From contig QPGO01000115.1 of assembly GCA_008632985.1 (NCBI GenBank), positions 62,001 to 126,000 of the forward strand: 64,000 nucleotides of DNA, read 5' to 3'. The stretch is from Psammoneis japonica. Taxonomy: Eukaryota. Both the position numbers and the translations under genes were made by a program. Position 1 is the stretch's first letter. Every line of letters starts with the position of its first letter. The notes below the pieces were generated by a model. That model ran no database searches. It was not told the origin of the DNA and worked only from the letters and a program-made list of their open reading frames with translations. This document shows, one piece after another, positions 14,883 to 56,020 of this stretch.

Positions 14883-16499
14883 GACAGGATACTTATTCTG
14901 AAGTACAGTATGGTTTCGGATGTGTCGGAGTCAGTTGCGTTGTTTCTGACAGCTGCTGAAAAACGCCATTTTGTGGGTTAGATAAGTGAGAGAGATAGAT
15001 AATAAGATAGATCGATGTTGGAACCTGAAAAGGCCAGGAGCCTAAAAGACATCGACGAGACCAGAACATCGCCCACGCGCATGTAGACTAATGTGCTGCA
15101 CCGGCAGCCAACCTCAAATAAACCGCTTCAATTATGAACAGGATTGACAGCAAACGGCAACGAGAAAAACTAGAACGAAGCCGAGAAAGAGCATGGAAAT
15201 GAGAGTAAGGATGAGAACAAGGATGCCAACAATGTGAAAGGCCGTGGTGTCGGCAGCGGCATTGGTGAAAATGCATCAGGAACAAGAAGGAAAACACTGT
15301 GGGGTGAAGCAGCACAACAAGAAGTGGGGGGCAGTGGGAGAGAAAAGGTTGCTCTCCACAAAGCATGAAAGTTGACCCCCCACAGAGTGCAGCCCAGACA
15401 CACAGCTGCTTCTAGAGAGGGGGTCTCTGTGGTTTTGTGAACCACACCCCCAACAAACTGTGTGTGCCTGTTGTCCCCCAACCTTTTTGTTTTGTTGGAA
15501 ACAGCTGTGGAAGAAGAGCCTGGTGGCAGCGGTGTGCACATGCTGCCAGCGGGGCACAGACAGCATCATGAATCTGGGCACTGCACAAAACAGCTGTTGA
15601 GAAAGTGACAAAGGGAAGCAACCCCAAAGTCCAAACAAGAAACACAGAGGCTCCCCAAGCTTCCACTCAAGATGATGCCAAAATTCACAATGGGACAAGA
15701 GGCATGGCCGCATGGTGCACATGACAAGATGGAGAGCAAGCAGCAGCCAGCAAGCACCAACTGCGCAGCTTTCACCAAGACAACACAAGAGACAACGGAT
15801 TTTGTTTGGGACACGCTTGACAGCAGTGGCCACACAAAAGGGGCGGCCGGTGGAGCCACTTGCTGCTGAACATGATCTTTTGCCATGCTGAGAAGCCAAA
15901 AACTCAAAAGAAGGGGAAAAGCAGGAGGAGACAAATGGCCAGGCCACCAGGACAAAGAAGCTGCACCAACAAAATGCAAAAGAAGCACACAACATTGTCT
16001 GGGAACAGCACGGCAATGCAGCGAGATCTGGGATCAAAACAAACAAGGAGTGGAAAGCTGTGGCCACAGAGCTTTTGTGGGGCCATGGTCTGCCCAAGAT
16101 CATCAGATTGGTGTGTTGTTTTTCACAATTTCCAAACAATGAAGAAAATCACATTGCCAGAATTGTGCTGGCTGCACCATGAGAAACAGAGCAAAACAAA
16201 AGATGAGCAAAGTGCTGAAATGAAAATTGTGACCAGCTTGGGTGCCAAGCAACTGAGATGCTCTGCAGTGTGGTCCAAGAACTCCTCTCATTTTGCCAAT
16301 CAGCCAGAACTTCCCAGGTTGCATGAAAAACATGCTTGCAGCCAAGTGTTCTGTGCAAAATGTTCTCAGTGCTTTTTGTCTGTGTCTTGCAATGTGCTCC
16401 AGTGCTCACAATCTCCAAGTCTGCAGCTCTCAGAGAATTGTCTCCTGTGGCACATTTTGGCACTTGCACCAATGCCTTCACATGTGCAATTGTCAGAGC

Positions 16500-19400
16500 T
16501 TGCTGAAGGTGTGTCTCTGACAAACACTGCTTTTTTTCTGCCAAATGTCAGCAAGTGTCACTCCACAAAGCCGGGCTTGTCTTTGACTGTGGTGCAGAGC
16601 TCTCAGCATGGTGCTGCTGTGCTCGTCCCCTCCATGATTTGGGCACAGCCAGGGCCATTGATGACTCCCTCTTTGAGCAGTTTGAGCCATGTCACATGTT
16701 TGCTGTGTCCAACTTGCTGCCTCTTTTGATTTGCATTGCAGCATTGCCAAATGCTTTTGGCAATGGCATTTGGGCCATTGTGCAATCCTTTAATGCCAAA
16801 GTGGTGCTTTGTTGTTTTTGTCATGTCCCATGTTTCTTCACTCTTTTCTCACTCTCTCCTTTTTGTCAGCATGCTTTGGTTTTTGATTGGCAACATGCTT
16901 GCAATTGAGTGTCATGTGCTGCACCTGAAAAGTGTGCTGGACAGAAGAATGTGGATGAGGAGAGCATGGAACGACAATGGTGCAGTGGTGCATGAATGAA
17001 AAGGAGATCATGAAAGGCAAAAATTGCACTGCATTTTGTGTTTTGTTGGAAACCACAATTCTGGTCTTGGACCAAAGGAGTGGCTTTTGGGCTGGTCTGT
17101 TTGCAACCACAACTGTGACCAAGCAATGTGCACATTGACAATTGTGGCACAGTTGTTTTGCATTTGTGGGTGTTTTTCAATCCCAGCACCTGATTTGCCA
17201 ATTGAGAGAATGATGGCAGAATTTGTTTTTTGGTCTTGATGCAAAGTTGTCATGAGACACTGTCTGTTTGCAACTCACCAAAGTTGGCTTTTTGAGCTGC
17301 ATGGTTTGTGTGCAACACATCTTCAGTGTGTCAACAACTTGCTGCTCTGTGTCTGTTCAATGCACGCTTCCTCTTGTTGCAATCACCTGTGCATGCTGCA
17401 GAGAGTGTCTCACATCTCTGCCAAAGACTGGAGCTGGGTGCAGCCATGGATGCCACTCTTCTAAAAAGACCTTTTGGATCCATGCATGTGTCTTCAACTT
17501 CACAGCTCCTGACCACATTGCTTGTGACTTGGTGGGTGTGCTCAGTTTTTGCTGTAGAGCATCTGACAGCTGTGGTAAATTTGCACCTGACAAACTCACA
17601 TTTTCAGCCACATGCACCCCCTTTCATCATTGTGCTCAACAATTTTTTGCAGTCCAGTGGCAGGGGTGCTCATGACAACAGCTTGAACCTTCAAAGGCTT
17701 CCTGCTGCTCTTTCACCTTGCATGTGGGCCAGTTGGGTCCACACAGTGTCTTTTTCAAGGCTTGGCTTCTGCCTGTTCAAGAGGCAAATCATGTCTGTGC
17801 TTCTCATGTGTTTTTTCATGGATCTCACACACTGGACATTTGATGCCATGACTTGGGTGTCTTGTCTTCTCTCACATTCAGCCAGGGCAAGTGCCATTGT
17901 TGAGTGAATGCTTCTGCCCTGCTTGTGTCTGGATGCAACAGGCAGGTGCCACACAATGTTTCAACATGGTCTTGCAGTGCTTGCAGGATGTCAAAATTTT
18001 TCCTTTGTACATTGCTGGTGCTGTGGATTGTTTGCCTCCAGAAAAAACATCAGCACAGCAACTTCTGGGTTGCACTGGTTTGGAGTGACATTGTCTTGGC
18101 ATTGAGCCTTGTCAATGGCACCACACTTGCAGTGGAAGTGTGACTTTTGACAATCCTTGGTGTCTTGGTGCTCAGCACATTCAATGGCTGTGTTAATTTT
18201 TTCAACTGTTTTGTCAACATCTGGGGCCAGCTGAGAGTGCTGGGAACGACAAGGTTTGAGGAGCCCTTGACACACCACACATGTGGGCTGACTCTTCCAT
18301 TGCAAGACATGTTCTTGTGACATGCTCATCATTGATTTCTTTGTGAGCAAGTCAAGATTTTTGTGGTCAGTGTGCACACAGTTGTTGTTTGTGATGACCA
18401 GACAGAATGCTTTCAAATTCTTTGGGTGTTGCTGTGGTCAATGGCAGGTTGCTCTCTCTCTGCTGTCACACACCTGCTGTGCCTTGTTCTTGTGACATGC
18501 TCAGCATTGATTTCTTTGCAAGCATGTCAAGATTTTGTGGTCAGTGCATGCACAGTTGTTGTTTGTGATGACCAGACAGGTTGTTGTCATGGTTGACAGC
18601 AAGTTGCTCTCTCTCTCTCTCTCTCTCTTCTCTGCTGTCACACACCTGCTGTGCCTTGTGCAACTTGCAGCTGTGGAAAGCAATTTGACAATTTTCTTAA
18701 CTTGTGACAGCACCAAGCTGTGCTTGATCTCCATCTGCAGACAACAAGAAATGGCTCATTGAAGTTGGGGCAGACATGACAAAACACATCTTTGGTGAGC
18801 AAACATTGCCCTGCATTTGTCCACTTAACATGTGCAGGCCTGCTGCTCAAAGGTGCTGGAATTTGAGAATGTCTTGGCCACATGTCTCTGCAGCAGCTCA
18901 CTCTGCAGCAAGAAGAACAAATGTCTTGTTTCTTTCTGCATCGTTGGTGGTTTGAAAGCATGGGTTGCCCCCCACTTTTTGAAGCAGCAGTGGTTTTAAA
19001 CTCAGCAGAAAGCAGCTTTCTGCATTGATTCTCAAACTTGCTTGTTTGTCTCATTGGAAGATCTTTTGAAGTTTTTCAGATGACCACAAAAACCACCTTT
19101 TGCAGCAGCCAGCACACCTTTGAGATGGAGCAATCCATTGAACTCTCCACCAAAGCAAGAAGCTCAGATGCATGTTCCTGAAACACATCCTCCTGGGCTG
19201 TTGCAGGCTCCCGCCATTGGCAGTTGGAGAACTGAAATTGCACTTTCTCCCTGTGGACTCACACAATGATGTGTGCAGCATCAGTTGAACAAGGCAGCAC
19301 CCCAAATTTGCACCCAACAATGTCATGCAAGCAAACCCTTTGAGTTGATGAAACAAAAAGTCTTGCATTTTTGGCAGGGGGGGGGGGGGAGGTTTCCTTT

Positions 19401-19900
19401 TTATTCTTTTGTTGAGTCCCCAAAGCATGACACTGGAGCCTTGTGTTTCTTTTTTCAATCTTAAGCTCTTTGCACAAGAAGCTGCTGTGAGAATGGCTGC
19501 ACTCATTCTGCTGCCCAGCAAGATGTGAGCAGGGTTCAGTTTTCTCTTTTCTGGACTTGGAGTTTTTCGTCCCGAAACTGTGGGTGTTTGATGCCCCCAA
19601 GTTGACATCTTTTTCTTGTTTGGAATGGAAAAAGCCCACCTGATTTTTTGCTGGATGAACTTGAGCTGTGTGTGCATTTAAAGTCAGACTTTGCTGAGGG
19701 CAAGTTTTGAAAATTGTTCACTCTGCTTGCCATCAAAGTCGCTGTCTTTAGCAGCTGCCCTGGCTTGCTCATGTGCATGAGTTTTTGAAAATTTTAACCC
19801 AGTGGTGCCCAGCTGGCACCTTCATCATCTTTTGAAGCTGAGCCCAACCGTGACTTTGCAGCTCATTTCATGATGTCCAGTGCATTGAGCATTGGCACAC
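16500..19900 (-). mobile_element. Heavily mutated Ty3/Gypsy pol remnant (RNase H-integrase); boundaries approximate
   Basis: VHTDHKNL and ACTDHK (VYTDHKNL) followed by QEHVLQW (QRVLRW-like), and the integrase C-terminal PVFGRDV (LVFGRDM-like), in RNaseH->INT order on the minus strand. Confidence 0.65.
18311..18660. repeat. About 175-bp tandem duplication inside the Gypsy remnant, with a (CT)n expansion near 18607-18628
   Basis: gttcttgtgacatgctca...gtgatgaccagacag and tctgctgtcacacacctgctgtgccttgt each occur twice. Confidence 0.85.
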
Positions 19901-20399
19901 AGAACAACATCTGCTTTTTTTGTTTGTGTTGGCTTCAACCAGTTGTGTGCTGCCACTCTCAGCAGTCTTTGCAGACAGCTCAGTGCCAGCAGCACATGAG
20001 CTCTGCCACTCCAGCCCAGCAGAATTGGGCTTTGTCTTGTTGGATTTTTCCCTTCTGCTGGAATGCTGTTTGTCAAATGTTTTTCCAGAAGCTCCAGACA
20101 TTGCATCAGAGTGCACGAAATGTTAAAAATGTGTGGATTTGCATGATGACAATTTGTTAAAATGTTGCAAAACATTGTTGTCAAATGATGACAGGCCAAC
20201 CTCTGGTTGCAAGTTTGGTGTGCCAACATTGCAACAACTCATTGAGAATCATGTGTGCCATTTTTCACTGTGCCCACATCACCATTTCTGCCTCCACCTT
20301 GTTGCCACACGCCAATGCGTGATTGCATTGCCACACAAACCTTGGTTTGTCAATTTTGGTGAACATTGTTTTAAACAAGAAAAACATTTCATCGGTTGA

Positions 20400-23300
20400 G
20401 TCAATTCCTTGTTGCGTCTGCAGTGCAATGACCGAGTGCCATGTTAACTGTGCACATGTTTTCTTGCCACAACTCTCTTAAACTGAGCCAACAATCATCA
20501 TCGGACTCGTCTTCATTGGACTCATCTTCATCGGACTCATCTCCTCCGTTGCTTGTTTTGCCTTTTGCACCTTCCTCCTGCTCATCGTCATCACTGTTGT
20601 CACCCCTGCTGCTCTCCACCATTGGGCTGTTCATTGCCTTCACCTTCTCCGCATCACCGGTCGGTGCTGTCTTCTTCTTCTTTTTTGCTTCTCCGGACTT
20701 CTCGCACTCGCTTTTCTTGATCTCCGCATGCCACTTTTCAAACTCCTTGCCCTCCTTGGAGTCTCTGTCTTTCGTCACCTCTTTGCACAAATGTTGAACC
20801 GAATGATTCCATTGTCTCCCCAAGACACTCGTTGTTTCTTTGGCTTCGTGTGCCAAGGGGCAGGCCTTGTTTCTTCGGGCTCCATTTCCTCACCCAATTC
20901 TTCCACCGCCTCCTCCTTGTTCCTGCATGCCCACACCTGCCAACAATTCTCCATGGCCAATGGTGCCAAAGCTTCGTCACCTGCCGCAAACAACTGTGAG
21001 ACCTGTGCATTCCCAGTTTTGACGGTGCTGCTCCATGCCTGCTTTTGCTTGGTTTGAGGTAGGATGTGATCACAGAACCACTTGCGTGCCTGCTTGTTCC
21101 TTCGTTTGCCGCCGGTGACAGTGTCTGGGCCAAACAGATCCCATGTTGGCACAAACGGGATGTCATTCTCTTCATTCTTGTCACGGCTTGACTTTTTCCT
21201 GGTTTGCTTTTTCCTCCTGACTGCCGCCTTGAGTTTCTTTTCTTTTTCCTTTCCCTCTTCCTCAGTGACAATGCCTGTGTAGACAAAGCATCACCGTCAT
21301 CTTCTTGTGAGACACACGCAACTCTCGAATCACACACATTGGTCACTCAACTTACGGGCCATTGCCTCCGCCCCAACAGCCGAACACACCGTGTTTCTGC
21401 GATTGTCATTTGCCTTTTTACCGCCTTTTTTGCCCATTCCTCCCAAGTTCCTGACCAATTTGAAGTGTCCATGTTGCCACCAGCAATCTGTTTCTTCACA
21501 AACATTGAGGCGCTCCCATTGCTTGCCAACTCTGACGGACTGAGAAACTTCACCTGTGGAAAGAGATTATTTCCAGCCACCTTCTCTGCTTCTGATTTCA
21601 ATGCACCATGTGCTGCCTGCGCACCTGTTCTCTTCAACACTGCCTGAAGTCTCAGGCTCATTGGCTCAATGGTCTCATTTTTCTTTCTCTTCTTTGCCGG
21701 TGGTGCTGGAGACGACATCTTGATCTTTGCATGGCAACAATGAGAGCAGTGTCACTGTTTGACAGTGCAACCGTCATCTGGGTCGTGTTGAGACAGCCAG
21801 CCACTCTGTTTTTCTCTGTGACATTGCACAAATTGTTGTCAGCAACATTGAAATTTGAAAATGTGTTTGTGCAACAATGAACAGTCCAACTTGCTTTTTG
21901 ATGTGGCTGTCATTGCGTTTCAACGGAGACAATGTCCTTCATTTTGACAGCAAATAAAAAAGAACAATGTTCACTGTAAATGCCAGATAAAAAATCAAAA
22001 TGCAGACACGTCACACCCACAAGAATCATCCAAATCTGGAAGACAATGTAATGTTTGCCATTTTCCCGCCATTTTTTGCGTGTTGTTCTTCTTTTCCCTT
22101 CTCATCCACAAGACAAGGACGACAAGTGTGAGTCTTGATGAAGGCCCTGTCAACATTGACCAGAGAACTGTGAGGCAACGGCATCAGCGTGCAGACTTGG
22201 TCAGTCGCTGGCAGCTTGATCACAAATAAACAACTGGCTTTCAATGCCTGAGAAGACTCAGCACTCACCTGAGTTGCGGGTTGTCCCTGTCAAAGCAATT
22301 GGGGACAATGTTTTGGTTTATGAAGAATGTCCAGGAGCAGCAGAAGCACAAGAAAAGGCCCTGTTTGTTTGGGCCACACAGGACAGAAGGAAGTGTTGGT
22401 CAGATTTGTTTCTAAAATGGGACACGCGCATCAATCCATCATTCACTCACAGTGATTTCCCAACTCTTTCTTGCAAACATGATGAATTTGATCCTTTCAG
22501 AATCAGCAAAGTCATTGCGGTGCACGTGAAGCAGTGCGGCATGAGCACCTTCCGTTGCTTTTGTTCTGATGTCTTCTTCGGAAACTCCAAGACAAGCTTC
22601 TTCCTGATCGGAAGGCTTTCCCAACCACCATTCTTGTTGTTCTTGGGTTGCAAGGTTGCTTGCAAAGAACAAACTCGCACGGCTCTTTGCAGCATCATTG
22701 TCCATTGTGCATGTGTCGAACACAGCCGATGATTTCTTCCATTGTTTGACAACCTGGAAGAAGGTTGCAAGAGCAAAGGGAATCACTGTGTCCCCCCCTT
22801 CTTCGTTTTTGGAGAGCAAGGCCCGAAGATCAAATAGATTCTGGAAAAATTGAGTCGTCCCAAAACGACTGTCGCACCACTCTCCATCTGGCATCCAGCA
22901 GCAGTCCAACATGATTTGGTCGAACCCATGATTGTCAAAATCAACAAGTTTCTCAAACTGCTGCTTGACTCTCTTGACGAAATCTCTTGCTTTCACATTG
23001 CAATTTAAGTGCAGATCAGGATGGCCGTCTTGGAGAGAAACTGTTGGAACAACGTTTGTGATTGTTTTGTCAGATTCCTCAAATGCCATTGCGCGGGCCT
23101 CGTCTCGCCTGTGTTGGTCGGACGACACTAAGGCCACCCCCTTCTCAGAGCACAACTCTTGAGAAGATAGTTGCCTTGCATTGAGCGGACGGGTCATCCC
23201 AACCACAGCACATTGTGTGTTTCCCCGTTGGTTTCGTCACTTGCGAAACTGTCTCCCAAGTTGCTGTGGTCCTCTTCACCCTCGGAGCAATGTGCAACTT

Positions 23301-26300
23301 GGTTGTGCTCATCATCAACAGGCTCTTCGCTTTTGTCCTCTTCACCCATGCAAGCAGTTGGAAGTTCGCTTGTTTTCTCGTCAATTGACTCCTCCTTGCA
23401 ATCGTCACTTTTGTTCATTGCGAATGACAACAAATCACTGGCGGCCTTCTTCCTGTTAGAACGAGAAATCAATGTGATGATGTCAGCACAATCAGACAAA
23501 AAACAAATGTGATTGCCATGAAAAAGTGACCTCTCTTTGCCGTTCCAGTTTGGCTCGAACTTCATCAATCGACACGAATGGGACTGGCTCCCATTTGCAC
23601 CTTCCAAGCCGCTTGATCGTTGATTGCCCATCAGAGAACAAGAGCAACAGATGCTGTCCGCAACAAAAGACATCGCAGATTCCCATCTTTTCACGAGCTG
23701 CACTCAGGTCACATGGTGAAGACTTGGGGCCATTCTTTCCACAGTCTTCCAAATCAAAATCACCCTCCATCCGTTCCAAGAGTAAATCGCGCTCCACCAC
23801 CGGGACCTTCATTTCCTCCATTTGCTTCGCCACTCCCAACTTGGCTGCCGGGTGGACAAGATTACGAAGGTCAGGGTGAGGATGGATCCCTGTGCCACAC
23901 AGCATCAATGTCGTGTGTGGAGTTCATGCATCTGAACTCTCCACAATCAGCACCTGCATGATCCCATGTTTGGACCACGGCTTTGAACATGTCCTCGATC
24001 GCCTTGTGGTCAAACGTTGGCTTGCCAACATTGTCATTGATCCAGTCGATGACAACAACCAGTCCGCCAACAAGCAAATCCATCAAACCATTGAGTTTTG
24101 TCCCGCACTCTGCCACATGAACCTCCTCGAAATCGAGTCCCGGGCTCTGCATGCGTCGGTTGTTGCGATCCCCCGCAATGCTGCCGAATGGCCTCGCAGC
24201 TTCTCTGAAGCAATGAAGGACACAATCGCCAGCCATGAAAGGACGCTTCACAGCATCTGTGTTGCACAACAAGCAGTGAAAATGGGAGAATCCGGTTTGA
24301 CACCCAGCCACAACGGCGCAACAAAAGCAATCGTGTGCACCAACCTCATCGAGGTTGTCGATGATTGCCGAACAACCGCACGAGAAATTAAAGTCCTTCA
24401 CGATGGCAAACGGAAGACGTTTCCTCGGCATGACAACAACGGGACACTTGACTGCGTCGGACGGAAGATTTGGCTTGCCAATTTCCTCTTCCACCCACAC
24501 AGAGTGAGGGTCAAGGAAAAAATCTTTGATGTTTCTGTGGGTTGGCTTGCCCGACGGAGGACGACAAGGGCCACGGCATCTCATCATTTCTGCAGCATGT
24601 GACAGATCAAGTTTTGCAAAATGACCATGCACACGCGATCGGAACTCAGCACACCCATGCACCAAACTGACACAGTTTCCAGCATTGCCTTTGGATGCAG
24701 TGACAACCTTCAATGACCAAGAGCGACCAACAGCGTCTCGCAGTGACGAGCAAAGAGCACCAGTCTTGGTGTGCCCATCCATGTCACAATCCTCTTTGTC
24801 AATGTGCAGCTCGGTTTTCGAATTGACGGATTTTTTGCCGGACGACGAGATGCACTTAACTTGAATTTCCACGCCTTCCCTTCTACATGCTTGGCTCCAA
24901 CCATCTTACGGAGCTCAGCCGCGAAAAGACTGTCACGGTGCAGGTCATGGAAGGAGCGCATTTCTTTCAATGCAACAAGATTGATTTCGTCCTCGCAGAG
25001 TTGCGTGGTGTCCAAGATTGAGGGCGTCATTGCCTGCACATCCTTTGGAAGCTTCTCCCACTTGTCCCTGCCAAAGACAGCACCAGGCTTGTGAGCAGGT
25101 CCCACTTCAGCTGACTCGCCGTCTGCGACTTTGTAATTCTGGCCACAACAACCAAAACAGATCCAACAGCGCAACTTGCATTCTGGTCCATCCCTTTTTT
25201 TGTTTGGCTCGCCATGTTCCAACACTGCACGGAGCATCAACGACACACTGATCGCAATCCAAAAAAGCATTTCTGACACATCTTGTCCGTGTGTCGCAAA
25301 TGAGTGACCACGTTGGAAAAATGAGAGGTTGACTGGGTCGGGTGAGCAATCGCAACCATCGATTCTTGCGTCGGATCATTGGGAGCTGTGCCGTTTTCAA
25401 ATCCATGCATGAACTTGCGGAGGTGATTCACCAAGCAGAAATCGGAGATGCTGTGGAACAACTGGTGCTTGACACAGTTCCCCTTGAAGGAACCGGAAAT
25501 GGGTGTTTCCTCAAAGATGACAAGGTGAGAATGTTGTGACTTCACCTCACCCGGAATCGCAAACGGAGATGGTTCAGGAAACACTTTCACAAGCTCTTCT
25601 TTTGTGAAATTGTCTGGCGGAGGAGGAGGCGACTGATGAGTTGCACCGAGGGTCGGCCACTTTGTTCGGGAATGTTCAAATTGTTCCTCGAGAGTCGGCA
25701 CATCTTGGAGAATCAGCGATTCGTTCTGAGAAACATCAGAAGGTTCACCATCTTGGGGTTTTTTGAGACTGGGGCTTGAGGAGCAAAGGGAGGCGGCCAA
25801 AGAGGTGGCAAGAAGAATGGAAGCATTGGAGACAAGTAGAGGAGCATGAACAATCAATCAAACAATGTGATGGATTCACACCATTTGGGTTTTTTTGTTT
25901 CCGAGCATTTTTCGCAACGGATGGAATTGCATTGCCGATTTCTTTCTTCTTGCACTGAGTGGCAAAGTCACGAAGCCTGGCTTTCCACACAGCCTCAAAA
26001 CAATCCCTTGCAGCCTTGCTTTTGCCGGAATCGTCAGCGGCAGAAACCACACGATCAATTTTCACACATCTTAAAAGAGTCTCATCGACATGTGTTGCAC
26101 GCATTTGTTCTCGCTCGACATCGAGCATTGCCAGTCGCATGGGCTTTTCCCAAGAATTTTTGTGTTGGTGGAACAACAACTTTACGAATTCAGGGAAGGA
26201 CATGGGGCATTCGTCTTTGGTTGTCTCACAGCAACCAAGAGCCAGGAAATTCTCCAAAAAGTTGATGCAAGTTGACGTCTCATCACATTCGCCGAACAGG

Positions 26301-27830
26301 GAGTGCAGCCAATGACTGCAATCGCCATTCCTTTCAGGTGCGTGCGGCAGAATCTTGTCACGAAGAATCAAAAAACCAATGTGAAGGCATTGTGCGTAAC
26401 GCAAAACCTTCCCTTCAAAACTTCTCAGCTCAATGTGCTTGACAAGTGGCTCTCCCTTTGGGTCGCACAATCCGGGATCATGGAGAAGCTTGCCAACATG
26501 GAAATCTTTGCCATCATGTTGGTTGCAATGTCTGTTGATTTTGCCTTGTCGCCGACGACTTTCACATCCTCTGCTTTGGGAGCACGGTGACACTCCAATG
26601 CATGAGGATGTTTGGCGCCTTGACTGGAATGACTCCATCCTTTTGTGGAAAGAAAGTGCAGCAAGCTCTTGCACCCAAGTTCCTTTGCAACAATGCGGTT
26701 CACAGCCATCAGTTCTGCAAAAAAATGAGGTCTGCCCTTCGACTTTTGCCACACATGGGCAAGGCGATCCAATTCGGAGAGGGTCACAAGTGGAATCGCG
26801 GTGAAACTGAACCTTGGATTTCACCGTCTCGATTGTCGCTTTGACACGGCTCCGCTCGTTGCTGTCGATCACTCCAAAACCGTTGGCAAAGAGAGACTCA
26901 AATGCGGCCTCCTCGAGGTGGGAATCATTGTTGTCTTGCAACAGAGAGGTGACCGACAGGTCACGCGGCGCCATGGTTGCTGTTCCAACACCAAAAAATC
27001 TGGTTTCTGTAGAAACACACCAGAGTGGTGTGTGGGAGAAGTCACATGCGCGCCTGGTGCGATTTGGAGTTTTAAACACAAAAACCTGCCAGACGCGTGT
27101 GCAACTTCTCCCAGGGAAATCCTGCATGAGATTGTGCCGGGAAAGGGCAATGCGGAGTGTAGAATTGATGGAAGAAAATGTTGTGCGGAAAAGCATCAGG
27201 AGAAAGGGTGCATGCACTGGAAAACAACATGGATTTCTACATGCGCGTTAAGGTGCGTGAAAAACACGTGGGTGCCTTCAAGTGACGCGTGCGAACAATC
27301 ACAAAGAAACATTCAGAAATGGAGACAGCACAGAGAGAAGTCAGAAACATGGATCCAAAACAAAGTGACACAACAGAAAAAAAAAACAACAACAACAAGA
27401 GATGAAGGCGACGGCGACGGGATCGATGAAAAAGAAGGATTCGGATGGAAAGATGCCAGAGACGGTGAAAACAGGCGGCGCCAAGACGAGGAAGGAAGAG
27501 AAAAATGGGACGGGCAAAATGAAGAAAGACAAAAAGAAGCCGACGACACGACATCAAGAGGGGAGCAGCGACACGATTCAGCATTTCGAGGGACCTCTTC
27601 CTCTTGATGATGTTCACCCAAATGCAAGAAATGCAGTGTGGCTTTTTTGGAACGGTGACGAGGAAACATCCAACGCGGCAGCGGCACATTTGAAATTCTT
27701 GCAAGAGAGCGGACAAGACATGTGGAATGAAGAGGATGATGTGGACGACTGGGCAAATTGGAGCACAGTTGTCAATTGAACAATCAGTGCACACTTTGCA
27801 TGATGAAAATTTCATTGCATGCAATTGCAA
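20400..27830 (-). mobile_element. Degenerate multi-ORF element (possible Plavaka/CACTA-like transposon or viral-type insert) with cargo ORFs
   Basis: Chain of long, nearly Tyr-free minus-strand ORFs (25745-27217, 25237-25857, 24710-25279, 23871-24872, 22439-23206, 21347-21718); LFPQVKFL and plus-strand LRVVPVKAI...WSDLF recall Plavaka-associated proteins (my recollection, unverified). Confidence 0.4.
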
Positions 27831-28099
27831 TGTTTGGCTTGTCGTTAAAGATCGTCAGTTGTTGTGAAAAAGGCAGAGCACAAAAATTAAAAAACATCTG
27901 TGTTCAAACATGAAGAACAGCAGGAGATTGACAATTGGCCAAATGACAAAAACCGTCATGTGCAGACAAGTAGATTTTATAATGTGGCAATGTGTTTTTA
28001 TCATGTGTGCAGATGTTATGATGTCGTGCACTCTGATGCTTCACAGATGTTCACAAAACCAACCAAGGAACATCTCACAATGTCAAAGCTCTGAGGAAA

Positions 28100-30030
28100 A
28101 ACTCAGCACTGCAAAATGTTGGGACACACAGCCTCTGCCATGACAGGGGTGCAACAGCGGCCACAAACTTCCAGACAGTCAGTTCCTGCAGCTTTCAGAA
28201 GCACCATTGGAGAAAACACTTCTGCTCACATGGTGCATGACAAGGAAAGCATCAGAAACAGACCTTGCAAGATCTTGCACAGCTGTGTCAAAGTGGTTGT
28301 TGGTCTTGTTTTCATCAGCATCAGCAGCTGCATTGAGTGCAAATGGAGCACTGCTCTCTGACAGAGAGCACATGATCATGTGCTCAGAGAAGGGCGCCTG
28401 CATGCACCAGCTTTGTCCAGCATCTTCAAAAAAGCAACACATTTGGAGACTTTGCCCCATCTTTAAAGGTCTACATGTGCAGGGCAATGGTTTCCAACAA
28501 GTTCAAGTTGTTGAGATTTTTGCCCAAATGCCCCCCTTGACTGCATTTTTTAATTTCTTGTCTTTTGACATTTTGGGAGGAACCAAGGGGGAAGCTGGGA
28601 GAGCAAGAGAGGTTGGTTGCTGGCTTTGCAAAGATGTCAGCAGGGGGCACCATGGTTGGAGACTGTCATCACTCATGTGTCTTGGAGCTGCTCAGAATGG
28701 CACAGCAGTTGGCTGGCAACTCAGTGGGCTTCTCATTGGGGCATGTTTGCAGAAGACTGAGGGACATGGTGAGCTGACACTTTCAGAGTTTGGAGAGTGC
28801 CAGAGGCATCAACCAGAGGTGCCAACAAAAGACTGGGCAATGTGGTCCACACATCCCTTCCACCTTGTTCTCAGCTCATCCTCTGGGCCCTGCATGGCCT
28901 GTGCCAAAGACTCTTCTCCCTGTTGACAAGATCCATGTAAGATGGCTGTCACTGAGTGCCATTTTGCATTGCCCACCACACTGTTGTTGCAGAGTTGCCA
29001 TTGTGTTCAAAATTGAAAATTCTCCATCAGCCATTTGGCATTTGGGTGCAGGGTTTTGACAGCTTTTGTGCTGCTGGTGGTGGAGGCTTGTGTGGGGAGC
29101 ACACACCCACTTCAAGTTTGGGCTCCTGAGCAATGCTCTTGTCACTGCAATTGCTGTGCCAGTGCTGTGAGTCTTGGTCTGGGGGACCATTTTCTCCAGT
29201 GGGTCACATGTCTCTCCCACTCATCTGGATGGCTTTTCTCTTGCTGATGTTGGTCAGCTCAGAGCTGGAGTGCAGATTTCCAAGAGCCACCTTCAGTTCA
29301 CTCACAACATTTTCATGCTGCACACACTGCATTGTCTTCCTGCTGTTGGCATTTTTTTTCACAGTGGGGCATTTGTGACTCCCATTCTGTGGTGGGCTTG
29401 CCACTTGCTCCAGGGCTTCTTTCTACCCCTTCCAAACATCTTGCACAATGGGCTTCATTGTTGTTCAGACCAGTCAAAAAGCTCTCTTGACAGGGATCAT
29501 GAGTCAGTTGGGGGCTTGCCTGCCCCAGCAGTTTCACAAAACTTTTCTTCCATTTCCTGCTGCCATGTCTGAGACCAAGTTGACTTGCCAACACAGTTGG
29601 CACAGATTTGGTCCAGCAAGACACACTTGCCTTTCATGCCCACCTGTCAGAACACCTCTGCACCTGAAAACTTTTGTTGTTGACTCTGTGCAGCAGCGAG
29701 GGGATGGAGGGTGATTTCAATTTGGAAGCTGTTCTGCCGCACCAAGAATTTCCAAATGTCCTTTATCCAGGAGGTGTGATGTGATGATCCAACAATCAAC
29801 TCTTCTGGGAGCAGAAGGCAGACAAGCCAGATCAGAGTGCCCAACAAAATGAGCATGGGGAGTGCAACTTGAAGGGCTCGCACTGCTGGCATCAGGGCTG
29901 GAGGCAGTTGCTCTGGTCTGGGCGTCTCCAAACCAAAGCGTAAAATGAGCCAGGTCAATTCAATTGGGCAAACAAAGGAAGAAGTCGAAGATTCATGACC
30001 AGGTCCACAGAACGCAATTGTAGATAGCAC
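28100..30030 (-). mobile_element. Possible degenerate non-LTR retroelement fragment
   Basis: SWIKDIWKFL...IEI and ALSDS (SDGS-like) fragments; TpA/CpG-depleted. Confidence 0.3.
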
Positions 30031-30151
30031 GGTAACTAGCTAGCAACTAAATGCTGAATAGTGAAGAGGATTCGTTCCCCCAGTGGTTTCACAGTAACAA
30101 ACTACACTATGCGTTACAATCAGCGACATTTCCAACCGTCTGGCTCAGACG

Positions 30152-31465
30152 CTAGTCCAACGGGATGCCAATCTTTTTCATCAATGCAACTCCGATAATT
30201 GCACCAGTGAGATAGTAGCCGAAGGTAGCTTCAGGGGATAAGACAGGATTCTCCGCATCTCCCAGTATTGAGTTGTAGGAAGAAAGGGTGACCTCATCGA
30301 AGAAATAGTCTTCATCTTGCAAGGCCAGGTCAGTCTCACTCTTTGTCACCTTCACAGACGGAGATTTCTTGCGACAAAACCCAATGGTGCGGTTACACAC
30401 GCCGGGCAATTGCTCACCGAGTTCGCTCTCGCTGAGTAGTAATTCTCGCTGCCGAGCCGCCAATAAGAACCCTTGCTGTTTCGTCGCCAAGAGATCAGAA
30501 ATGTGCGTTGAAGTGCCTTGCTTCAGACTAGGGAGGCCCTCGAGAATGTCTTCCCGTTCATCCAATACCTTGATGAAGCGGCCCTGGTAGAAAAAGCCGA
30601 CACTCACGTAGCAAAGAAACAAGGAAGCCAAGGAGGCAAACTCCTTGAGTCCCTTACGCTTTCGGAACACGGCCATTTCGATAAACTCTTGGCATTCTCC
30701 TTCTTCCTCCATATCCTCGACTTGGTCTTCTTTTTCTTCAGATATCCAGCCGAATACGCCTCCCGACAATCGAGCCAGAATTAGGCTGAAAATCAATACT
30801 ATTAGGTTCACGGTCTCGTCCATTCCGAGGTCCTTGGTTGGCTCGACAACGATGAGAGAAAATAATTCAAAGCACGCAACGTGTGTGAAGCAAAAGACTA
30901 GAAGTCCGAACGCCCCAGGGATGGCGTATTTCATTTCAAACTTAGCTTGGCGCCGGAGCCTTTCGCAGAATGGGATTGACGTCGAAGTTCCAGAGACGGT
31001 GGATGACTCTTCATTCTTCTTCTTCTTTGCCGGTGTAATGGTCTCCTTGCTCTTGGTGACAGAAGGTTTGGTTGTGTTAGCTTCACTCTCCTTCTCGTCC
31101 ACTCTGTCATCACTACAGCTCGTAGTCTCCTTCTCGTCCACTTTGTTGTCACTATAGCTAGTAGAGAGCTGAAGCATGTACTTGCGAAAAGATTCTTCGT
31201 AGTCATTCAAAAGCTTCATCTCCTCTTTGCTAGTGGTATTCTCGAGCAGTCTCAACATTCCTTGTCGCACCTTGAGATGCTGCTCGATGGTGTCTTTATT
31301 AGCAAGTTCCACCGTCGATTCTTTGCTGTGGAAGTTCGTCTTTTCGGGTTCAGGGCCGTCTTGGCGTTCTTTCTGACTTGTGCTCTCAGACAACGTTGAT
31401 TTCTGGCTCGTTTCGTCCTCGTCCGAACCATGAACCGGGGTTAGAAGTTTTTGTAAGGGAGCCAT
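30152..31465 (-). CDS. Unknown multi-pass membrane protein, copy A (437 aa)
   Basis: Intact ORF with a charged N-terminus and about 4 hydrophobic segments; near-identical paralog at 40466-41755. Confidence 0.8.
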   Translation of the reverse strand: MAPLQKLLTPVHGSDEDETSQKSTLSESTSQKERQDGPEPEKTNFHSKESTVELANKDTIEQHLKVRQGMLRLLENTTSKEEMKLLNDYEESFRKYMLQLSTSYSDNKVDEKETTSCSDDRVDEKESEANTTKPSVTKSKETITPAKKKKNEESSTVSGTSTSIPFCERLRRQAKFEMKYAIPGAFGLLVFCFTHVACFELFSLIVVEPTKDLGMDETVNLIVLIFSLILARLSGGVFGWISEEKEDQVEDMEEEGECQEFIEMAVFRKRKGLKEFASLASLFLCYVSVGFFYQGRFIKVLDEREDILEGLPSLKQGTSTHISDLLATKQQGFLLAARQRELLLSESELGEQLPGVCNRTIGFCRKKSPSVKVTKSETDLALQDEDYFFDEVTLSSYNSILGDAENPVLSPEATFGYYLTGAIIGVALMKKIGIPLD

Positions 31466-32530
31466 ATCTTCGACGACTTATCAAGTGGTGACAGGTATTT
31501 CACGGTGCTGTTATTTTTGATTGGTTGGTAAACAGGTTCAATTGCAAGTCATAGGTACCGGTAAGGGACTGAGGAGCAAATTTTTGTGTTCTGTCTTGTG
31601 TGGCATGTCCTTCAGGTGTCGTGTCGATGATGGTGAATATTTGAATGATTGTGAGCGCGTGCGTTGAAGGTTGGGCACGGGCGGTGGGGTTCGCAAAAAG
31701 AGGCGGGAAAACTCTCTCTTTTTTGATACTGTGTAGAAAATATACACGACCTCATTATCCATCCGCGACCAAGCAAACCTGATAGTACCTCCATACGATC
31801 TAAGTGGTGATTCCCGTAGAGAATCAGGCGTACCAACGGGACTCGAAGGCAATTTATGTTTACCTCTATAAGATAATTATTACTTTCGATATACATCATC
31901 CATGCTGGAGAACACAAACAAACAGAGCGACGACCCAACGGCACAATACTCCTAATACTTCATAACTGCTTTCCGTTGGCTCCATTATTTGCTTTCCGTT
32001 CAATTTTGAATAACTTTCGTATGTGCCGGTAGTGTGGAAGTTTCAAGCACTTTTGGTTTTGAGGTAGTCGACGTGCGCACTTGCGACCGGTCCGACTGGC
32101 GCAGTTCGTTTTTGGTCATGTCTCTGTGCTGCACCTGCTGCACCGTGCTTCACCATGAATGACCAAATGGTGGATGGAAGACAATTTTGTCACTTCATCC
32201 ACACCAGAACAAGACCCAACACAAACAAACAACACAGCAGCTGCAGACTGAGGGCACTTTACCATCTTGTGTTGCAGCAGTCAAAGCAGCTTGGATTTTT
32301 TGCTTTCACAGAAAATGTGTGCTCAGTGGCGGCGCAAAAGAGACTGAGCTCCCAAAGAGCAAAGCTGTGCTGCACAAGCTCATCACAGCCAGGTGATGCC
32401 TTGGAAACACACACCTCAGGTTGCGCACAGCAAATCAACAAACAGACCAGTGTTTTGGCACATGAGTGATCCAAAACATGTGCTGTTGGTGACTCTTTGG
32501 GAAAGAAAGCAAAGAATCCTTGCTCAGCCA

Positions 32531-32762
32531 AGTCGAAAGACAGTTCTGTCGTGTGACAGGAAGAGAGAAGCTTGCGCAGGTTGTTTGCAATGCAAACAGC
32601 ACCAAGGCATGCAGACATTGTTGTTGTTGCTGTGCTGTTGTTCAAAGGATTGTGGCAAAATTTTGTTGCAATTTTAACAGCTGTTTGAGTGGTCAGCTGA
32701 ACAAATCAATGGGTCTGGGTTGCAGTCATGTTCTGCAACCAGAATGATGTTCAGTTGTGACT
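32531..32762 (-). repeat. 3' LTR of the Copia element (232 bp)
   Basis: Aligns with 39449-39677 (shared gtctgggttgcagtcatgttctgcaaccagaatgatg); adjacent to the PPT. Confidence 0.85.
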
Positions 32763-35700
32763 CTCCTTCTCAACCAAAAGAGCTTGTTCACCAGCCCATC
32801 AGAGCCTTTCTGGCCATGCGGAACACATCTGTCCACAGTCCCTTCATGAACTGATCAGCCAGTTGCTCTAGAGTGCTGACAGGTTGGATGTCAAACTGCA
32901 ATTGTTCGACCTTTGTCCCAAACCAATGATGCAGGACACCAATGTGCTTAGTTCACAGAGACAACTTGGGCACATGTGCAAACTTGAGGGCACGCAGTGT
33001 TGTCTTTGCACACAACGGACGCAGGCAGGATGTTCTGCTTGATGGGCAAGTCATTGGTGCCTTTTTTGGTGAGCTCAAAAGCCTTGGAGAGTGAGTCATG
33101 ATGGGGTTGCGGTGGTCAGACTTTCCAAATGCACAATGGTGGAGCTCCTTCAGAACTTCACAAATGGGGATGAGATTGCACACAGCCTGCAACAGCATGA
33201 CATGCTCCACTTCCACAGTGGACAATGCCACAAGAAGAGTCCGCAGCATGGACACCTGGACAAGTGGACAGCCGGCACAGTGGACAAGGCATCCAGTCCT
33301 GAACTTGACTGAAACTGGGTCTTGCCCATCTTCAACACCAAACAAGCCTGTGAAGTCAGAATTGACATGACAACCAACTCGATGATCTTGCGCAGGCTTG
33401 AGCATGAGACTGTCAGTGGCAGCAGCCTTGAGGCATCAGAGCATCCGCTGCTTCACTGCAGCAGCATGGGATGCTCGAGGTGCAAACAAAAAACATGCAA
33501 CTTGATGTGTTGCATGTGCAACATCTGGCCGGCTGTTTGCAGCCAAGTGCATCACCATTCCAACAACTGAACAACAATTGCAGGGTCAACCGAAAGTCAG
33601 GCCATCCTCCGTGTCTGTGCCAACATGTGCAGGAACAGCTGGAGTGGCAGCTCTGTTGCAATCTTCCATTTGGGCAGCGCGCAGGACCTTGTCAATGAGA
33701 CCAGGTTGAGTGAGCAGAAATTGACCATTGGAGAGCTTTTTGATCTTGATGCCAAGAAAGTCACTGACTCCTCCTTCATCTGCAAGTTCAAACACATGGC
33801 GATGCTCATTGTCAGAGACTCCTCCTGGCTTGCAAATTTCCTCCTCCAGAGCTTCTGCTGACACACCAGTGAACACCATGTTGTCAATGTGCATGACACA
33901 CATCATGCCTTCCTTGAAGTGTGGGCATGGGTCTGTGGCTGAAGGTGCCCATCCGTGCTTGATCAAACCATCTCACAGTTTCTCACAAAAACACTTTGGA
34001 GACTGCTTGAGGCCACACAGTCCTTTCAGTGGCTTGAGGACCACATTGAGTCCCAACCTTGGCACAAAACCCTTGGGTGGTGATGGCGGACTTCTTTGGC
34101 AATGTCCGCTTGGCAAAAGGCTGTGGTGTGGTCTGCTTGACATGCAGTCCATCTCTCTTTCAATGCAGCAGTGAGCATGAGTCAAATGCTGGACCATTGC
34201 ACTGCTGGCACGCATGTCTCAAAACAATCTGTGCCCTCTTTCTGCAGATCACCATGGGTGCAGTGCTGGGACTCATGCTTCAAAGGCATTCCATCTGGTG
34301 GCCTCTTAAGTTTGAAAGCCCATGTGCCAGGGAGTGCACACATCTTCAGTGGTGCATTTCACTGCTTTCCAGGCTTGATGGTGGATGAGCACATTCACTT
34401 TAATCTTCATTGCCTTGATCCACTCTTTTGCATCCGGGCCCATCAGAGCATTGTGTGGCAAAGGCACACTGGGGTTCTTGGTCTTCTCACTTGCTGCATG
34501 AGCCCTGGGAATGCCAACATTGCATGCACACCAGCATCCAAAATGGTCTCAAGAGCAGCCAGACAAGCCAGCTGAGCTTGGCATCTCATTGGCACCTCTT
34601 CTTCCTTGACGGAGCTAAGAAAAACTTTGTCCATGAACTTGGCAGAATGGAGCTGTCCCTTGGTTCACCTGGAAGACCTTTGAAGAAGTCCCAACTCTCC
34701 CTCTGAATTCACCATTGGAGATGCTTTGACTGGAGCAGGTGCTGTTGGTTCAGAAGGTGCTTCAGGTGGCGGAAGTTTGTCACTTTCCTGAGGTGGAGGT
34801 GGCTGAATTGGCACAGGCTCTGCAGAGTTTGCAGTGTCTTGAGTTGCAGGTGGGGCTGGGGGCTGAGTTGGAGTTGGTGCTGGAGTCATGGGCACAACTT
34901 GATTTGATGCATCATTGAGAGGAACAGCTGGATCCTGCACAGATGTCGATGGAGTTGGTTGGAAATTGCCTCAAACACAAGTCTCTCTGACCAGTTCTTC
35001 TTGCTCCTTGCATTGGTGTTCAAGAGGAGTGAGCCACTCATTGTGAAGATGGATTGTCTGGTCTTTCTCCAGAGGGATGATGAAAATCAACTGCTTGTGA
35101 CAAAGTTGCTTCCAGTGGTCAGATGGATCCATCTCCCTCTTGATCAATGGTGCAGCAGTGAACAGACAATCAAAAACCACACAATGCTGAGGAGCAATGC
35201 TTCCAGTTTGAAGATTGAGTGCAAGGGGTGCCTTGCTTGAATGGATTGTTCTCAAACCAACAAAAAGAGCATGGTGAGCACGTGGTTGCCATTGAGGCAG
35301 TTTCTTCCCAGAAGCAAGTGCCGGGTCAAGAATGCACGCTGGACAACCCCATGTGTGAATGTCTTGCAAGTGATGCCAAGGCACCATGGAACCGGTGAAA
35401 ATGTCTGCTGGGCAATGCCCTTGTGCATTTGGGGTGATGTTGCAGATGTGCGTGGCACAAGATGCAGCTGTGGGTCACAGTGAACTGTTGGCCCCTCCCT
35501 TCCAATGAATTGATGCATGTGGGAGCATCGCTCTTGCCATGTTGGAGACAGAACAAATGCTGCACTCAGCAACCCTGCTCTGGTGATGGGCATTTGCACC
35601 ACAGATTCAAAGACATTGCTTGTGCTCCCTCACATGCTGGACAAAAGAGTTGGCCTTAAAGTGCCGCTGTCAGCAAGAAATTCTTGAATGATGACCCCAT

Positions 35701-37600
35701 GGTGGAGAGCATCATGTTTCTCAAATGCTTGTTTTGCTGGAATCATCTCTGCAGCAGAGAAACCCAGTTGATGTTCAACATGGAGGCAGCCTGAGGCATG
35801 GTCCATGAAGATGCAGACTCCCTTGAATTGTTTGGACATGGCTTCACTGCATGAGTCACAGGTTTGGCCTGGGAGGTGTGACTCAAAATGATCAATGCTT
35901 GTAGCCTGACCCAGTCACAAATGGTCAGGTTTCAGGGCCTGTCGTGCTCAGGGACTGCTGTCTTGTGGCAGAGCCCAGAGATTGTTTGTGACCTTTGGCA
36001 TGCTTTGCATCTTTGGTGGTCACACTTGGCCACCAACTTGAACCAATTTGACAAGAAAGAAACTGAACGGAGAAGGGCTTGGACGCGACCAAAGTTCAAA
36101 TGACCAAAACAGGAGTGCATCTCTGACAAAAGCTTCTGACCCACCATCAGATTCTGGTTTTCTTTGTTGAGAGCAAGCAGGTTCATTTGGGGAGCTTCAG
36201 AAACCCCCTTGGTCATTGACACAATGGGCAAGTGGCTTGAGGCATGACATGGCACTTCCAACTTCCCTGAGCCGTCAACACAAAGTCTGAAACTGTGCTG
36301 GTTGCCTTTGCACTTCCCACAGACACCCTTTGCTTTGTTGAAGAGATGCTGTGGTGACAGCAGACCTTGTTGGGCCCCAGGGACACAGTGCACCATGGCA
36401 TTCAGTTGGATGGTGGCACCGCTAGTGTTGTGAAGATCCGCGTGTCTTCATCATGAGAGACAGCCAATGTGGCACCAGTGTCTGTGATGACAGCCAGACT
36501 CCAGACTCTTGTCCAATGGACCGATGAGTGCCTGTGGATTGGTTGCCAACAGCTCGGCTGGGATGTGCCAGTGAGGAACTGGATGGTGGATGCATTGCAG
36601 ACAACTGGCCCAACACATGCTTCTTTCAACAGAGGCAACAGGATCTTGAAAATGAGCAGCATCAACAATGTGATGAGGGACACAGAGCTTGTCAAATTGG
36701 AAGGAATCAGAGCTGAAGTCCTCAAGCATGTCAAAGAAGCACTTCTGCTCATTGAGAGGCTCCAATTCCTCATGGGTGTTGAAGAAGGTTGATTCGTCAA
36801 TCAAGTCTGACCATTCAACTGCTTCTTGGGTCTTCCAGTGGCTTTGCAGACACTTGCTCAGTGCTCGATGGGTGGCACATGACAAACTTGGTGAGCACCT
36901 GCATGCCCTTGATCTTGTTGCATTCAAACAGAGATCCAGCATCTGACACAAAACCCAGTCATCTAACTCCTCCACAATGTTGCAGACCTGAGAGCTGGCT
37001 GTCGAAATTGGCTTGGCACATTCATGAATGGGCACTCAGGCTGTTGACTGACACAAACTGCAGATCATGCCATGACTGTGATGGACAGGACCATCCAAGA
37101 GGCTGGAAACCTGCACAAGGTGGGGAGTTTGTGTTGGCAATGCAGAGCTCAAGGGACACTTGGGATCAGAGCAAAGCAGACATGTGGTGCCGTTTCCCAA
37201 AACACAGCAGCAAGCCAGAATGCAAAGAGTTTGGCTTGTCCCAAAATTGATCGACACAAAGAGAGGTCTCTTCTTTGTCACACTCATGACAATCATCCAC
37301 ATCAAGGTTCTCTGGATCATAAAAATCAAAGCCATGGTGTGCAACACTTGATGGCAAGTCATTGCACGCATCTTCAAAGTGCAACTCATGTTCAAGAATG
37401 AGGTCCAGCTTGGCGGTGTCTGACAGCATGTCTGCAAGGTTGGCAGGTGCATCACAGAACTCATCTGAGTGCTTGATGGAATGCAGCTTTGAGGCTGGAA
37501 ACAACTCAATGGCCAGTGGTTTGTTTTCAATTGCAGACAGAGCATTGGAGCATTCACAAAAGTCATTGGCATCTTTGGGAGTGACGGTCTCAACCACAAT

Positions 37601-37662
37601 TGGAGACATGACTGGAGACATGACTGGATCCACAACTGGATCCACGACTGGATCCATGACTG
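37601..37662. repeat. 12-bp tandem repeat (about 5 units) in the gag-pol linker
   Basis: tggagacatgac tggagacatgac tggatccacaac tggatccacgac tggatccatgac; encodes PVMDPVVDPVVDPVMSPVMS. Confidence 0.85.
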
Positions 37663-39448
37663 GGCAAGTGTTTCGTGAGCTCAATTTGATGCAGTTCTCC
37701 TTGAAACTGACTTCCTTGTTGTTCTCCCACTTGGCTGAAGGGGCTGGAGCAACTGTTGCTGTCACAGCAACAGAGGTGGCAAGAAAACTTGGGTCATCAA
37801 TGGCATCCGTAGCCGCACACCACACACCCGTGTGCACCAACTCGTTGGGGTCAGATTCCTCCCCATCAGGCTCCTTGACAGTGTGAGCTGGTGGCCCCAC
37901 AGGCACACCGCTGTCAGGATTGGAGACTTGGGATGGGTTGCCCACTGGTGTTTCCTTGGGAGATCTCTTGAAGTTGTCCTTGTGCTCTGTGGCAGAGTGG
38001 TGTTGGTGGAGGCCAAGCTTTTCAGCTCCTTTTGCCACACACTTGGCACACCACTTCCATTCCTTCCCATTCTTGTTGGCTGTTGTGTCCCCATCACATT
38101 TCACACACCATGCCTGAACCCTTTTCTTCTTCTTCTTCTTCCCACCAGGGTCATCAGCAGGCATTGGATCCAGATTGGTGTCCTTTGGAGGGGGCTTCAG
38201 GTTGCACTTTGGACAGTTGTGCTGCAAAACACTTCTTGGCACTGGCTGGATTGTCAGACATGGAGAGGCTCCCTTTGGGAAGTTTTGCCACCAAAGCTGG
38301 CCATTCTCTGTCCTTGATGAGTTCAGAGTGCTCCTCCTGAATCCATGCAATGATTCCGACCAGTCTGAGAATGGCGCAGTCAGTGTCCAACTTGACAGCA
38401 GCAGGGCCCTTGAGGCAATGCTTGCGTTCCATCTTCTTAACATCATCAATCTTGTCATGCACTGAATGATTGAAGTGCTTGGAGGATGCATTTGAAACTT
38501 TGTGCAAGATCTTGGACCCAACATTGACCGGAACCGCACAGTCAGTCTGCATGATCTTGAGGATGTGGAGAGCTTTGGCAGCAAAGTTGGTCCAGTCTTC
38601 ACTGGGATGGGTGGCTAGAGCAAGCTCATCTGGGTCCTTCTTTGCACTCTCAATGTCAGCTGGAGCACTGGTGTTGCATGCATCCAGAGCCATCATGAAC
38701 AGCACTGAGCCTGGACAGTTCTTGCAGTCCTTCAAGTGGTTGAACTTGGTCTCCATTTTCTCGTGGAAGGTGTTCGTGATTCTTGATGGAACCAGCAGCT
38801 GGGACAGCCAGATGTTGTCAAGCTTGATGTCATTGTTGGCTGAGCCATCCAAGGCTGTGGAGCAAGAGGAGCGTTCTGCATGAAGGTCCACTGTGGAGAA
38901 CTTGTGGAGGTCATCAAAAATGCACACGGCAGCTCCATCCAATTTCTTGACATGGCAGAACATCTCTTGTCCATGAGCCTCAACTGGATCTTGGATGGTC
39001 TTCATGAAGGCATCCGTTGAACTTGGAAGTCATTGTGGAAGCTTGTTGATCTTAGAAAGAGCGCTTGATTGAATCAAGAGCTTTGGGGTGACAACACTGG
39101 GATGCGAAACAGGCAGGTCACAAGTGTTGTTTGGCTGGCATGGATCCGCTGACACAAACTCTGTGAGTCTGATGAAATCCACTGCAAATTGGTTGGGTTG
39201 GTTGTGGTTGGTTCTGGAGTTGCATTCCGGAGAAGATTGTTGTGAGTTGCTGCATCAACACAGCATCTGGAGCAGCACCAGTGGTTGAGGATGCAGTGGG
39301 AGGTGCAGGAGATGCCATGGTTGGATGTGAAGGCAGAAAGAGCAATTCAAATCAGGAGCTGCTTTTCCAGGTTTGCTTCAAAATCATGTCTGTGACAACA
39401 AACTCAGCCAGGAGCTTGGCACCAATGCACAAATTAGTCTCTGTGACC

Positions 39449-55159: not shown

Positions 55160-55190
<31 letters not shown>

Positions 55191-56010: not shown

Positions 56011-56020
56011 CAATGACTCA

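Follow-up and report, generated by a model that had tools for sequence, protein, structure and literature searches.

Reciprocal TG/CA doublets in a duplicated Gypsy fragment and the erasure of TA from transposons of the diatom Psammoneis japonica

The nuclear genome of the diatom Psammoneis japonica contains a dead Gypsy retrotransposon in which a local duplication has very likely captured a mutational process directed at transposons: TA dinucleotides that were intact when the duplication arose were afterwards mutated separately in the two copies, each to either TG or CA. The element lies in a stretch of 64,000 nucleotides (contig QPGO01000115.1 of assembly GCA_008632985.1, positions 62,001 to 126,000 of the forward strand), termed the window, and all coordinates given without another source are those of the window. 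The features on which the argument depends are as follows.

15210 to 29950, no strand: nested repeats forming a TA-erased block that is sharply bounded against genes
17635 to 19416, minus strand: decayed, frameshifted Gypsy pol (RT, RNase H, integrase) containing the duplication
18310 to 18487, minus strand: unit 1 of the duplication, from the RNase H region of the Gypsy pol, reading VHTDHKNL
18344 to 18345, no strand: TG, the third reciprocal doublet, facing CA at 18519–18520
18373 to 18376, no strand: TGCA, two adjacent doublets, reciprocal to 18547–18550
18433 to 18443, no strand: three further reciprocal doublets (18433, 18439 and 18442 facing 18588, 18594 and 18597), overlooked in the first-pass annotation
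18485 to 18659, minus strand: unit 2 of the duplication, reading ACTDHK
18547 to 18550, no strand: CATG, two adjacent doublets, reciprocal to 18373–18376
20100 to 21930, no strand: high-copy repeat in which TA is nearly saturated with change and CG is partly retained

The element that holds the duplication has the pol order of a Ty3/Gypsy LTR retrotransposon, RT followed by RNase H and integrase. Searches by tblastn with an in-genome Gypsy pol matched the minus strand at 19416–19009 (RT), 18889–18565 (RT/RNase H) and 17841–17635 (integrase); these matches, and the RVT_1, RT_RNaseH, Integrase_H2C2 and rve domains of the relative L070, support the Gypsy RNase H motif that had been proposed on this strand. 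An LTR pair was looked for around the decayed copy and not found; its relatives have LTRs and a target-site duplication. Only nine TA and three CG are left across 17400–19450. DNA and protein searches of the 91 Mb assembly returned the window copy itself, weak sister-family matches and the neighbouring repeat, and the nearest relatives compared share approximately 56–59% DNA identity with the window copy; the comparison took in 30 of 150 RNase H matches listed, and a closer family may exist. The wider block has the same character, with 0–11 TA per kb in repeat blocks (where CG ranges from 1 to 57) against approximately 30–60 in genes, and edges that are sharp to 100–200 bases. The high-copy repeat at 20100–21930 has at least 29 other loci at approximately 90% identity. 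A second TA-erased block is flanked by direct repeats at 32531–32762 and 39449–39677, probably the LTRs of another retroelement, which are 80% identical and have seven reciprocal TG/CA doublets among their 31 differences. For one neighbouring gene, the closest Atlas clusters are most frequent in Bacillariophyta, as expected of a diatom. Elsewhere in the window, three frames at 52949–60592 that retain TA resemble paralogues of what we take, from their motifs, to be a PP2C phosphatase.

The duplication has a period of 172–175 bases, and unit 2 differs from unit 1 by a deletion of approximately 18 bases and by the expansion of a CT run. The first-pass annotation had reported TGCA in one copy and CATG in the other within identical flanks, and these strings are exact. 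The two units can be aligned confidently over 159 columns, from which a 1-base indel, positions 18406–18423 (unit 1 only) and the CT-run expansion (unit 2) were excluded, and in which base 18579 was entered twice. Within these columns both units have a TG or CA doublet at 44 places, 38 of them identical and six reciprocal (18344, 18373, 18375, 18433, 18439 and 18442 in unit 1). Beyond the six, the units differ by only two transitions and three transversions, and when 14 transitions were placed at random, five or more reciprocal doublets arose in none of 200,000 trials. Tandem Repeats Finder did not report the duplication of approximately 174 bp. Contigs of the public run X1, which may be the source sample, span both sites, and no difference is listed at either.

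Reciprocity alone is no proof of a former TA, since CG has also been erased from the window copy and some reciprocal columns nearby were once CG. Compared with a relative, the window copy has changed TA to TG at 40 and to CA at 34 of 109 sites, and CG to CA at 24 and to TG at 23 of 84 sites (47/84); where 29 sequences of the neighbouring repeat are aligned, 56 columns are reciprocal and 17 of these clearly descend from CG. Some of the six reciprocal doublets may therefore have been CG. At the two named doublets, one transition per doublet gives TGCA and CATG from TATA, TACG, CGTA or CGCG, and the choice between these depends on relatives. Among 31 readable in-genome Gypsy loci (of 38), the first doublet is TA in 22, TT in three, TG in three and CA in three, and the second is TA in 17, TT in seven, CA in six and TG in one. 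The corresponding residues in 80 metagenome relatives are Val (67) or Ile (13), followed by Tyr (51), His (25), Phe (3) or Trp (1), and at the DNA level 14 of these relatives read TATA and seven read TGCA; these reference sets come from few families and are biased towards Tyr (top Pfam scores, and YTDH in one of six seed patterns). TATA is present in four of the top five DNA matches to unit 1. Decayed sister-family copies read VHTDH, TCTDH, THTDH and MHTDH, which are the kinds of product that the window also shows. The doublet at 18344–18345 aligns with a Tyr codon in relatives of family A.

From these comparisons we infer with high confidence that the site was TA-TA when the duplication arose. 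It had been proposed that this reading would fail if the family consensus lacked Tyr or TATA; in sister families of approximately 56–59% identity, TA is favoured at both doublets. The accompanying claim that TATA restores a canonical VYTDHKNL holds in part: TA is likely at both doublets, but VYTDH is not singled out, since 25 of the 80 outside relatives have a native His and seven have TGCA. The Val of the site may itself come from Ile, as in L091, whose family has Ile and whose Val arose by the same process. The TG and CA that flank the site may be further former TA steps.

The site could instead have arisen by 5-methylcytosine deamination alone, from CGCG or from one CG and one TA. The erasure of CG from the window copy, the former CG in the neighbouring repeat, the 27 matches to C5-methyltransferases in the genome and the CG methylation of diatom transposons by DNMT5 described in PMC9998398 all lend this some plausibility. 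We nevertheless consider it very improbable (the earlier note had objected that CGCG would not restore the motif): CG is found at neither doublet in the 31 in-genome loci (0/31) or the 80 outside relatives (0/80), where Arg and Ala are likewise absent from both places, and CpG decay does not remove TA, given that relatives with a CG observed/expected ratio of 0.01–0.15 hold TA at 0.62–0.75. Alternatively, unit 1 might be an unaltered native VHTDH (TGCA), or might have had one doublet converted beforehand, with unit 2 produced by ordinary transitions. TGCA and His are indeed native in some relatives, as noted above. This history would nonetheless require two to four adjacent ordinary transitions (four from a native TGCA), where the other 147 columns have two, and TG changes to CA at only 10 of 494 sites and CA to TG at 11 of 635 in younger copies, which makes it very unlikely. 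Under the preferred history of separate hits on TA, only six reciprocal doublets are seen where 9–13 would be expected with every former target intact (an estimated 18–26 targets; P = 0.12–0.005). Many targets had thus probably been converted already, and the duplication probably arose part-way through decay.

The process itself is best seen in younger Gypsy copies of the same genome, where the direction of change was scored from trios in which two observed copies rich in TA share a state and the third departs from it. A-to-G change occurs at 742 of 3895 comparisons for A preceded by T, against 47 of 6114 for A preceded by A and 25 of 4912 for A preceded by G, so that A:T-to-G:C change is nearly confined to TpA (742/3895 against 72/11026 for the other two contexts together) and TA is converted to TG or CA approximately 25-fold faster than other A-to-G changes occur. 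Transversions at TA are rare. Among 2018 TA comparisons, which are not independent since the copies share ancestry, 410 gave TG, 372 gave CA and only five gave CG, where independent hits predict 94; among 1862 CG comparisons, 92 gave TG or CA. In the same copies, then, approximately 39% of TA was changed against approximately 5% of CG. When each site and product is counted once, 504 TA sites yield TG 207 times, CA 184 times and CG five times, and reverse changes are rare (TG to TA at 8 of 494 sites, CA to TA at 14 of 635). The earlier proposal had been to count TG/CA reciprocal doublets by consensus: of 215 such columns, 179 have TA in the other copies, 10 have CG, seven have both and 19 neither, in agreement with its expectation of TA.

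Either hit removes the T that lies 5′ of the other A, and the product is thereby immune, so that change stops after one hit. The first-pass annotation had suggested both that each TA was hit once, on either strand and independently in the two copies, and that the immunity of the product pointed to a double-strand process. The TG and CA products in younger elements and in LTR pairs bear out the former; for the latter, second hits are nearly absent as proposed, but no double-stranded substrate is implied, the requirement for a 5′ T being sufficient. Mutation load ranges among copies from a few percent to more than 80%. Of 386 changes within pol frames, 264 are missense and 122 silent, none creates a stop and Tyr is the residue most often altered. 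Two comparisons serve as controls. A gene duplicate at 30037–31581 (minus strand), 85% identical to 40348–41860 over 1566 columns, has an ordinary spectrum of differences, the two copies retaining 61 and 54 TA. Among 22 pairs of metagenome relatives, the highest share of TA-related differences in any pair is 39 of 113, as against 161 of 193 in LTR pairs of the diatom itself; these relatives were chosen for intactness, and absence of the process from other hosts is not implied. One metagenome pair (L165/L180, 97% identical) has 30 TA-related, 43 CG-related and nine reciprocal differences, with 10 transversions among 113, and is a weak lead for the process in another host.

The sequence around the target influences both whether and where a change is made. 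A pyrimidine is preferred after the A on the altered strand: at sites where only one strand reads TAY, the majority outcome falls on that strand at 117 and on the other at 44, and change rates for two, one and no TAY strand are 0.52, 0.37 and 0.23. The palindromic RTAY class accordingly has the top rate (328/636), and both named doublets would sit in RTAY context. Of the 85 TA left in the repeat blocks of the window, 29 are in TTAA and one is in RTAY, compared with 273 RTAY among 959 in genes. Changes lie in tracts, with the concordance of adjacent sites above permutation in 13 of 14 elements, although the way in which family B was found, together with the inheritance of patches, accounts for part of this clustering. 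Two members of family B (L069 and L070) have a 5′ half (gag, RT) that is strongly depleted of TA and an integrase half that retains nearly all of it, a pattern possibly due to inherited patches or to recombination between copies. Runs of changes on one strand are absent: successive hits fall on the same strand in 406 of 770 cases against 392 expected, which rules out strand-coordinated (processive) editing.

Tracts of TA loss might also be left by an error-prone polymerase that resynthesised patches in methylated repeats and placed G opposite T, with the history of the duplication unchanged. Pol eta has WA hotspots, according to PMC8749460, and tracts occur in nearly all of the elements. The rest of the spectrum makes such a polymerase unlikely: AA-to-AG change is at background, transversions at TA are rare and strand runs are absent. 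Pol eta also mutates AA. A third version of the same history, slightly less unlikely in our estimation, has a base mark placed at palindromic TpA on repeats (methylated A or modified T), which then deaminates or miscodes. Its attraction is that the target is a palindromic dinucleotide restricted to repeats, as with CpG, and that the palindromic RTAY class changes most. The choice of strand nevertheless tracks the base after the altered A, which an enzyme acting on one strand explains equally well; we know of no base mark at TpA, and eukaryotic 6mA is located at ApT.

Differences within single insertions, along with an altered target-site duplication, place the changes after insertion. LTR pairs were compared in 16 of 20 fetched elements, three having no LTR pair and L071 being omitted for a large indel. 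Of their 193 differences, 101 set TA against TG or CA, 60 are reciprocal, 17 are CG-related, 10 are other transitions and five are transversions; none sets TA against CG. Among the 101, the changed LTR has TG in 55 cases and CA in 46. For 54 of the 60 reciprocal differences other LTRs contain TA but never CG, and for none do they contain CG only. In L079, the target-site duplication of 5 bases reads TA on one flank of the element and TG on the opposite flank. Among the elements L065–L084, the changed LTR is the 5′ LTR in 66 and the 3′ LTR in 35 of the cases where its partner retains TA, counts that tracts make non-independent. At 16935–16936 the window and the run X1 contig differ by a reciprocal TG/CA doublet, with one TA/TG and four CG-related differences nearby.

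Changes made on RNA or cDNA during retrotransposition, rather than on the chromosome, are hard to reconcile with this evidence. The copies in which the direction of change is known are retroelements, and there is a slight excess of TG on the sense strand (171 site majorities against 132). Yet both products occur among the differences between the paired LTRs of single elements, a host target-site duplication has been altered and the doublet at 16935–16936 is reciprocal between the window and the X1 contig; we judge an origin on RNA or cDNA highly improbable. No RNA run containing the stretch was found among the runs listed. Miscalling of modified bases in sequencing or assembly is still less credible. 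In its favour, the only run containing the stretch may be the source sample; against it, separately assembled contigs have the same bases, and a load that varies from a few percent to more than 80% among copies obeys rules of sequence context.

The probable route is adenine deamination of chromosomal DNA, in which a deaminase of the TadA/ADAT type would make inosine that is copied as G. A lesion on A and one on the paired T are indistinguishable from sequence. The enzyme would act on repeats in repeated low-dose rounds on local tracts, and targeting would be through the chromatin of silenced repeats rather than through duplication as such. An enzyme of this type is our favoured candidate, held tentatively and at a little under an even chance, since the context preference resembles the UACG of TadA editors and AA is not mutated. 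TadA-derived adenine editors are described in PMC8052359 as preferring UACG, and are thus alike in changing A to G after a 5′ T or U with C favoured next; natural TadA edits tRNA, the UACG preference there concerns RNA off-targets of an engineered enzyme, and the diatom enzyme is a candidate only. Searches of the genome with deaminase profiles gave nine dCMP_cyt_deam_1, five MafB19-deam and four A_deamin matches, including ADAT2-like (L098) and TadA-like (L095) genes; these have an ordinary housekeeping look, with none unusual and nothing linking any of them to the process. One frame (L097, 313–1785, minus strand) joins a deaminase domain to a 2OG-Fe(II) dioxygenase (DIOX_N, 2OG-FeII_Oxy), and probably belongs to purine metabolism.

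As far as our searches show, only one unrelated alga offers a published parallel to the signature; no report of a TA-to-TG/CA process in diatoms was found among the literature matches listed, subscription papers being mostly outside the search. In the chlorarachniophyte Bigelowiella natans, Mettrop et al. (bioRxiv 10.64898/2026.01.13.699255) describe TpA hypermutation of integrated NCLDV and virophage DNA, in which TpA changes to TpG or CpA on both strands, locally in foreign DNA, with TA depleted and TG and CA gained. Their preprint reports a de novo rate raised approximately 1000-fold and active in a subset of lines, an enrichment of RT and DDE domains among TA-poor genes, and an ADAT2-like deaminase as a proposed candidate. 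The diatom likewise has A:T-to-G:C change almost only at TpA, near-equal products (TG 410, CA 372) and restriction to mobile DNA, in this case transposon repeats. There are also differences. The Bigelowiella measurements were made de novo in viral inserts, whereas the diatom process is deduced from transposon copies, LTR pairs and a tandem duplication. The TA observed/expected ratio is 0.04–0.09 in diatom repeat blocks, which is saturating, against 0.45 in the Bigelowiella NCLDV region. The main text of the preprint includes neither diatoms nor a trinucleotide analysis; the TAY preference, the immunity count and the tracts are results of the present analysis.

Two better-known processes that inactivate repeats are also instructive. 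Repeat-induced point mutation (RIP) of ascomycetes is tied to the sexual cycle and to RID/DIM-2, and strikes long duplications above approximately 80% identity; in the one comparison made, a long gene pair of the window (85%, 1566 columns) was spared. In the account of PMC2621366, RIP resembles the diatom process in making repeat-restricted, dinucleotide-specific transitions that wreck transposon genes, yet it changes C to T mostly at CpA and so makes TpA, which the diatom process removes. Change in the RIP direction is rare in the diatom (CA to TA at 14/635 and TG to TA at 8/494, against 391 TA-to-TG/CA events at 504 sites), and strand runs are absent, unlike in RIP. The opposite direction and the spared gene duplicate rule out RIP as the cause. 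CpG decay of DNMT5-methylated diatom transposons (PMC9998398) is alike in its TG and CA products, its targets and its single hit per site. It starts from CG rather than TA and is slower here; it is thus rejected as the main process and acts alongside, where it would complete the erasure and leave old elements without either TA or CG. Among the 27 C5-methyltransferase matches in the genome, at least five are near full length and several others have internal stops.

The four bases at 18373–18376 are only a clean witness; the significance lies in a strong, targeted A:T-to-G:C mutator of nuclear DNA, which runs counter to RIP as well as to the mutation bias usually seen. Its changes are mostly missense and create no stop, so that elements are likely to be disabled while long frames remain open. 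In the TA-poor blocks, TAA and TAG are scarce and TGA is abundant (95 against 659 in 15400–30000, 32 against 404 in 32200–39900), which gives rise to spurious long ORFs with many Cys and His residues. Dating by LTR divergence and pseudogene calls based on stop codons mislead in this genome. An enzyme behind the process, if there is one, would represent a naturally occurring editor of adenine in DNA and a new form of defence against transposons. It is conceivable, though we rate it below an even chance and below the deaminase assignment itself, that a TadA/ADAT-type enzyme guided to silenced transposons rewrites T-A-pyrimidine in chromosomal DNA until TA is exhausted, as an A:T mirror of RIP that is shared with a rhizarian alga and possibly ancient in SAR.
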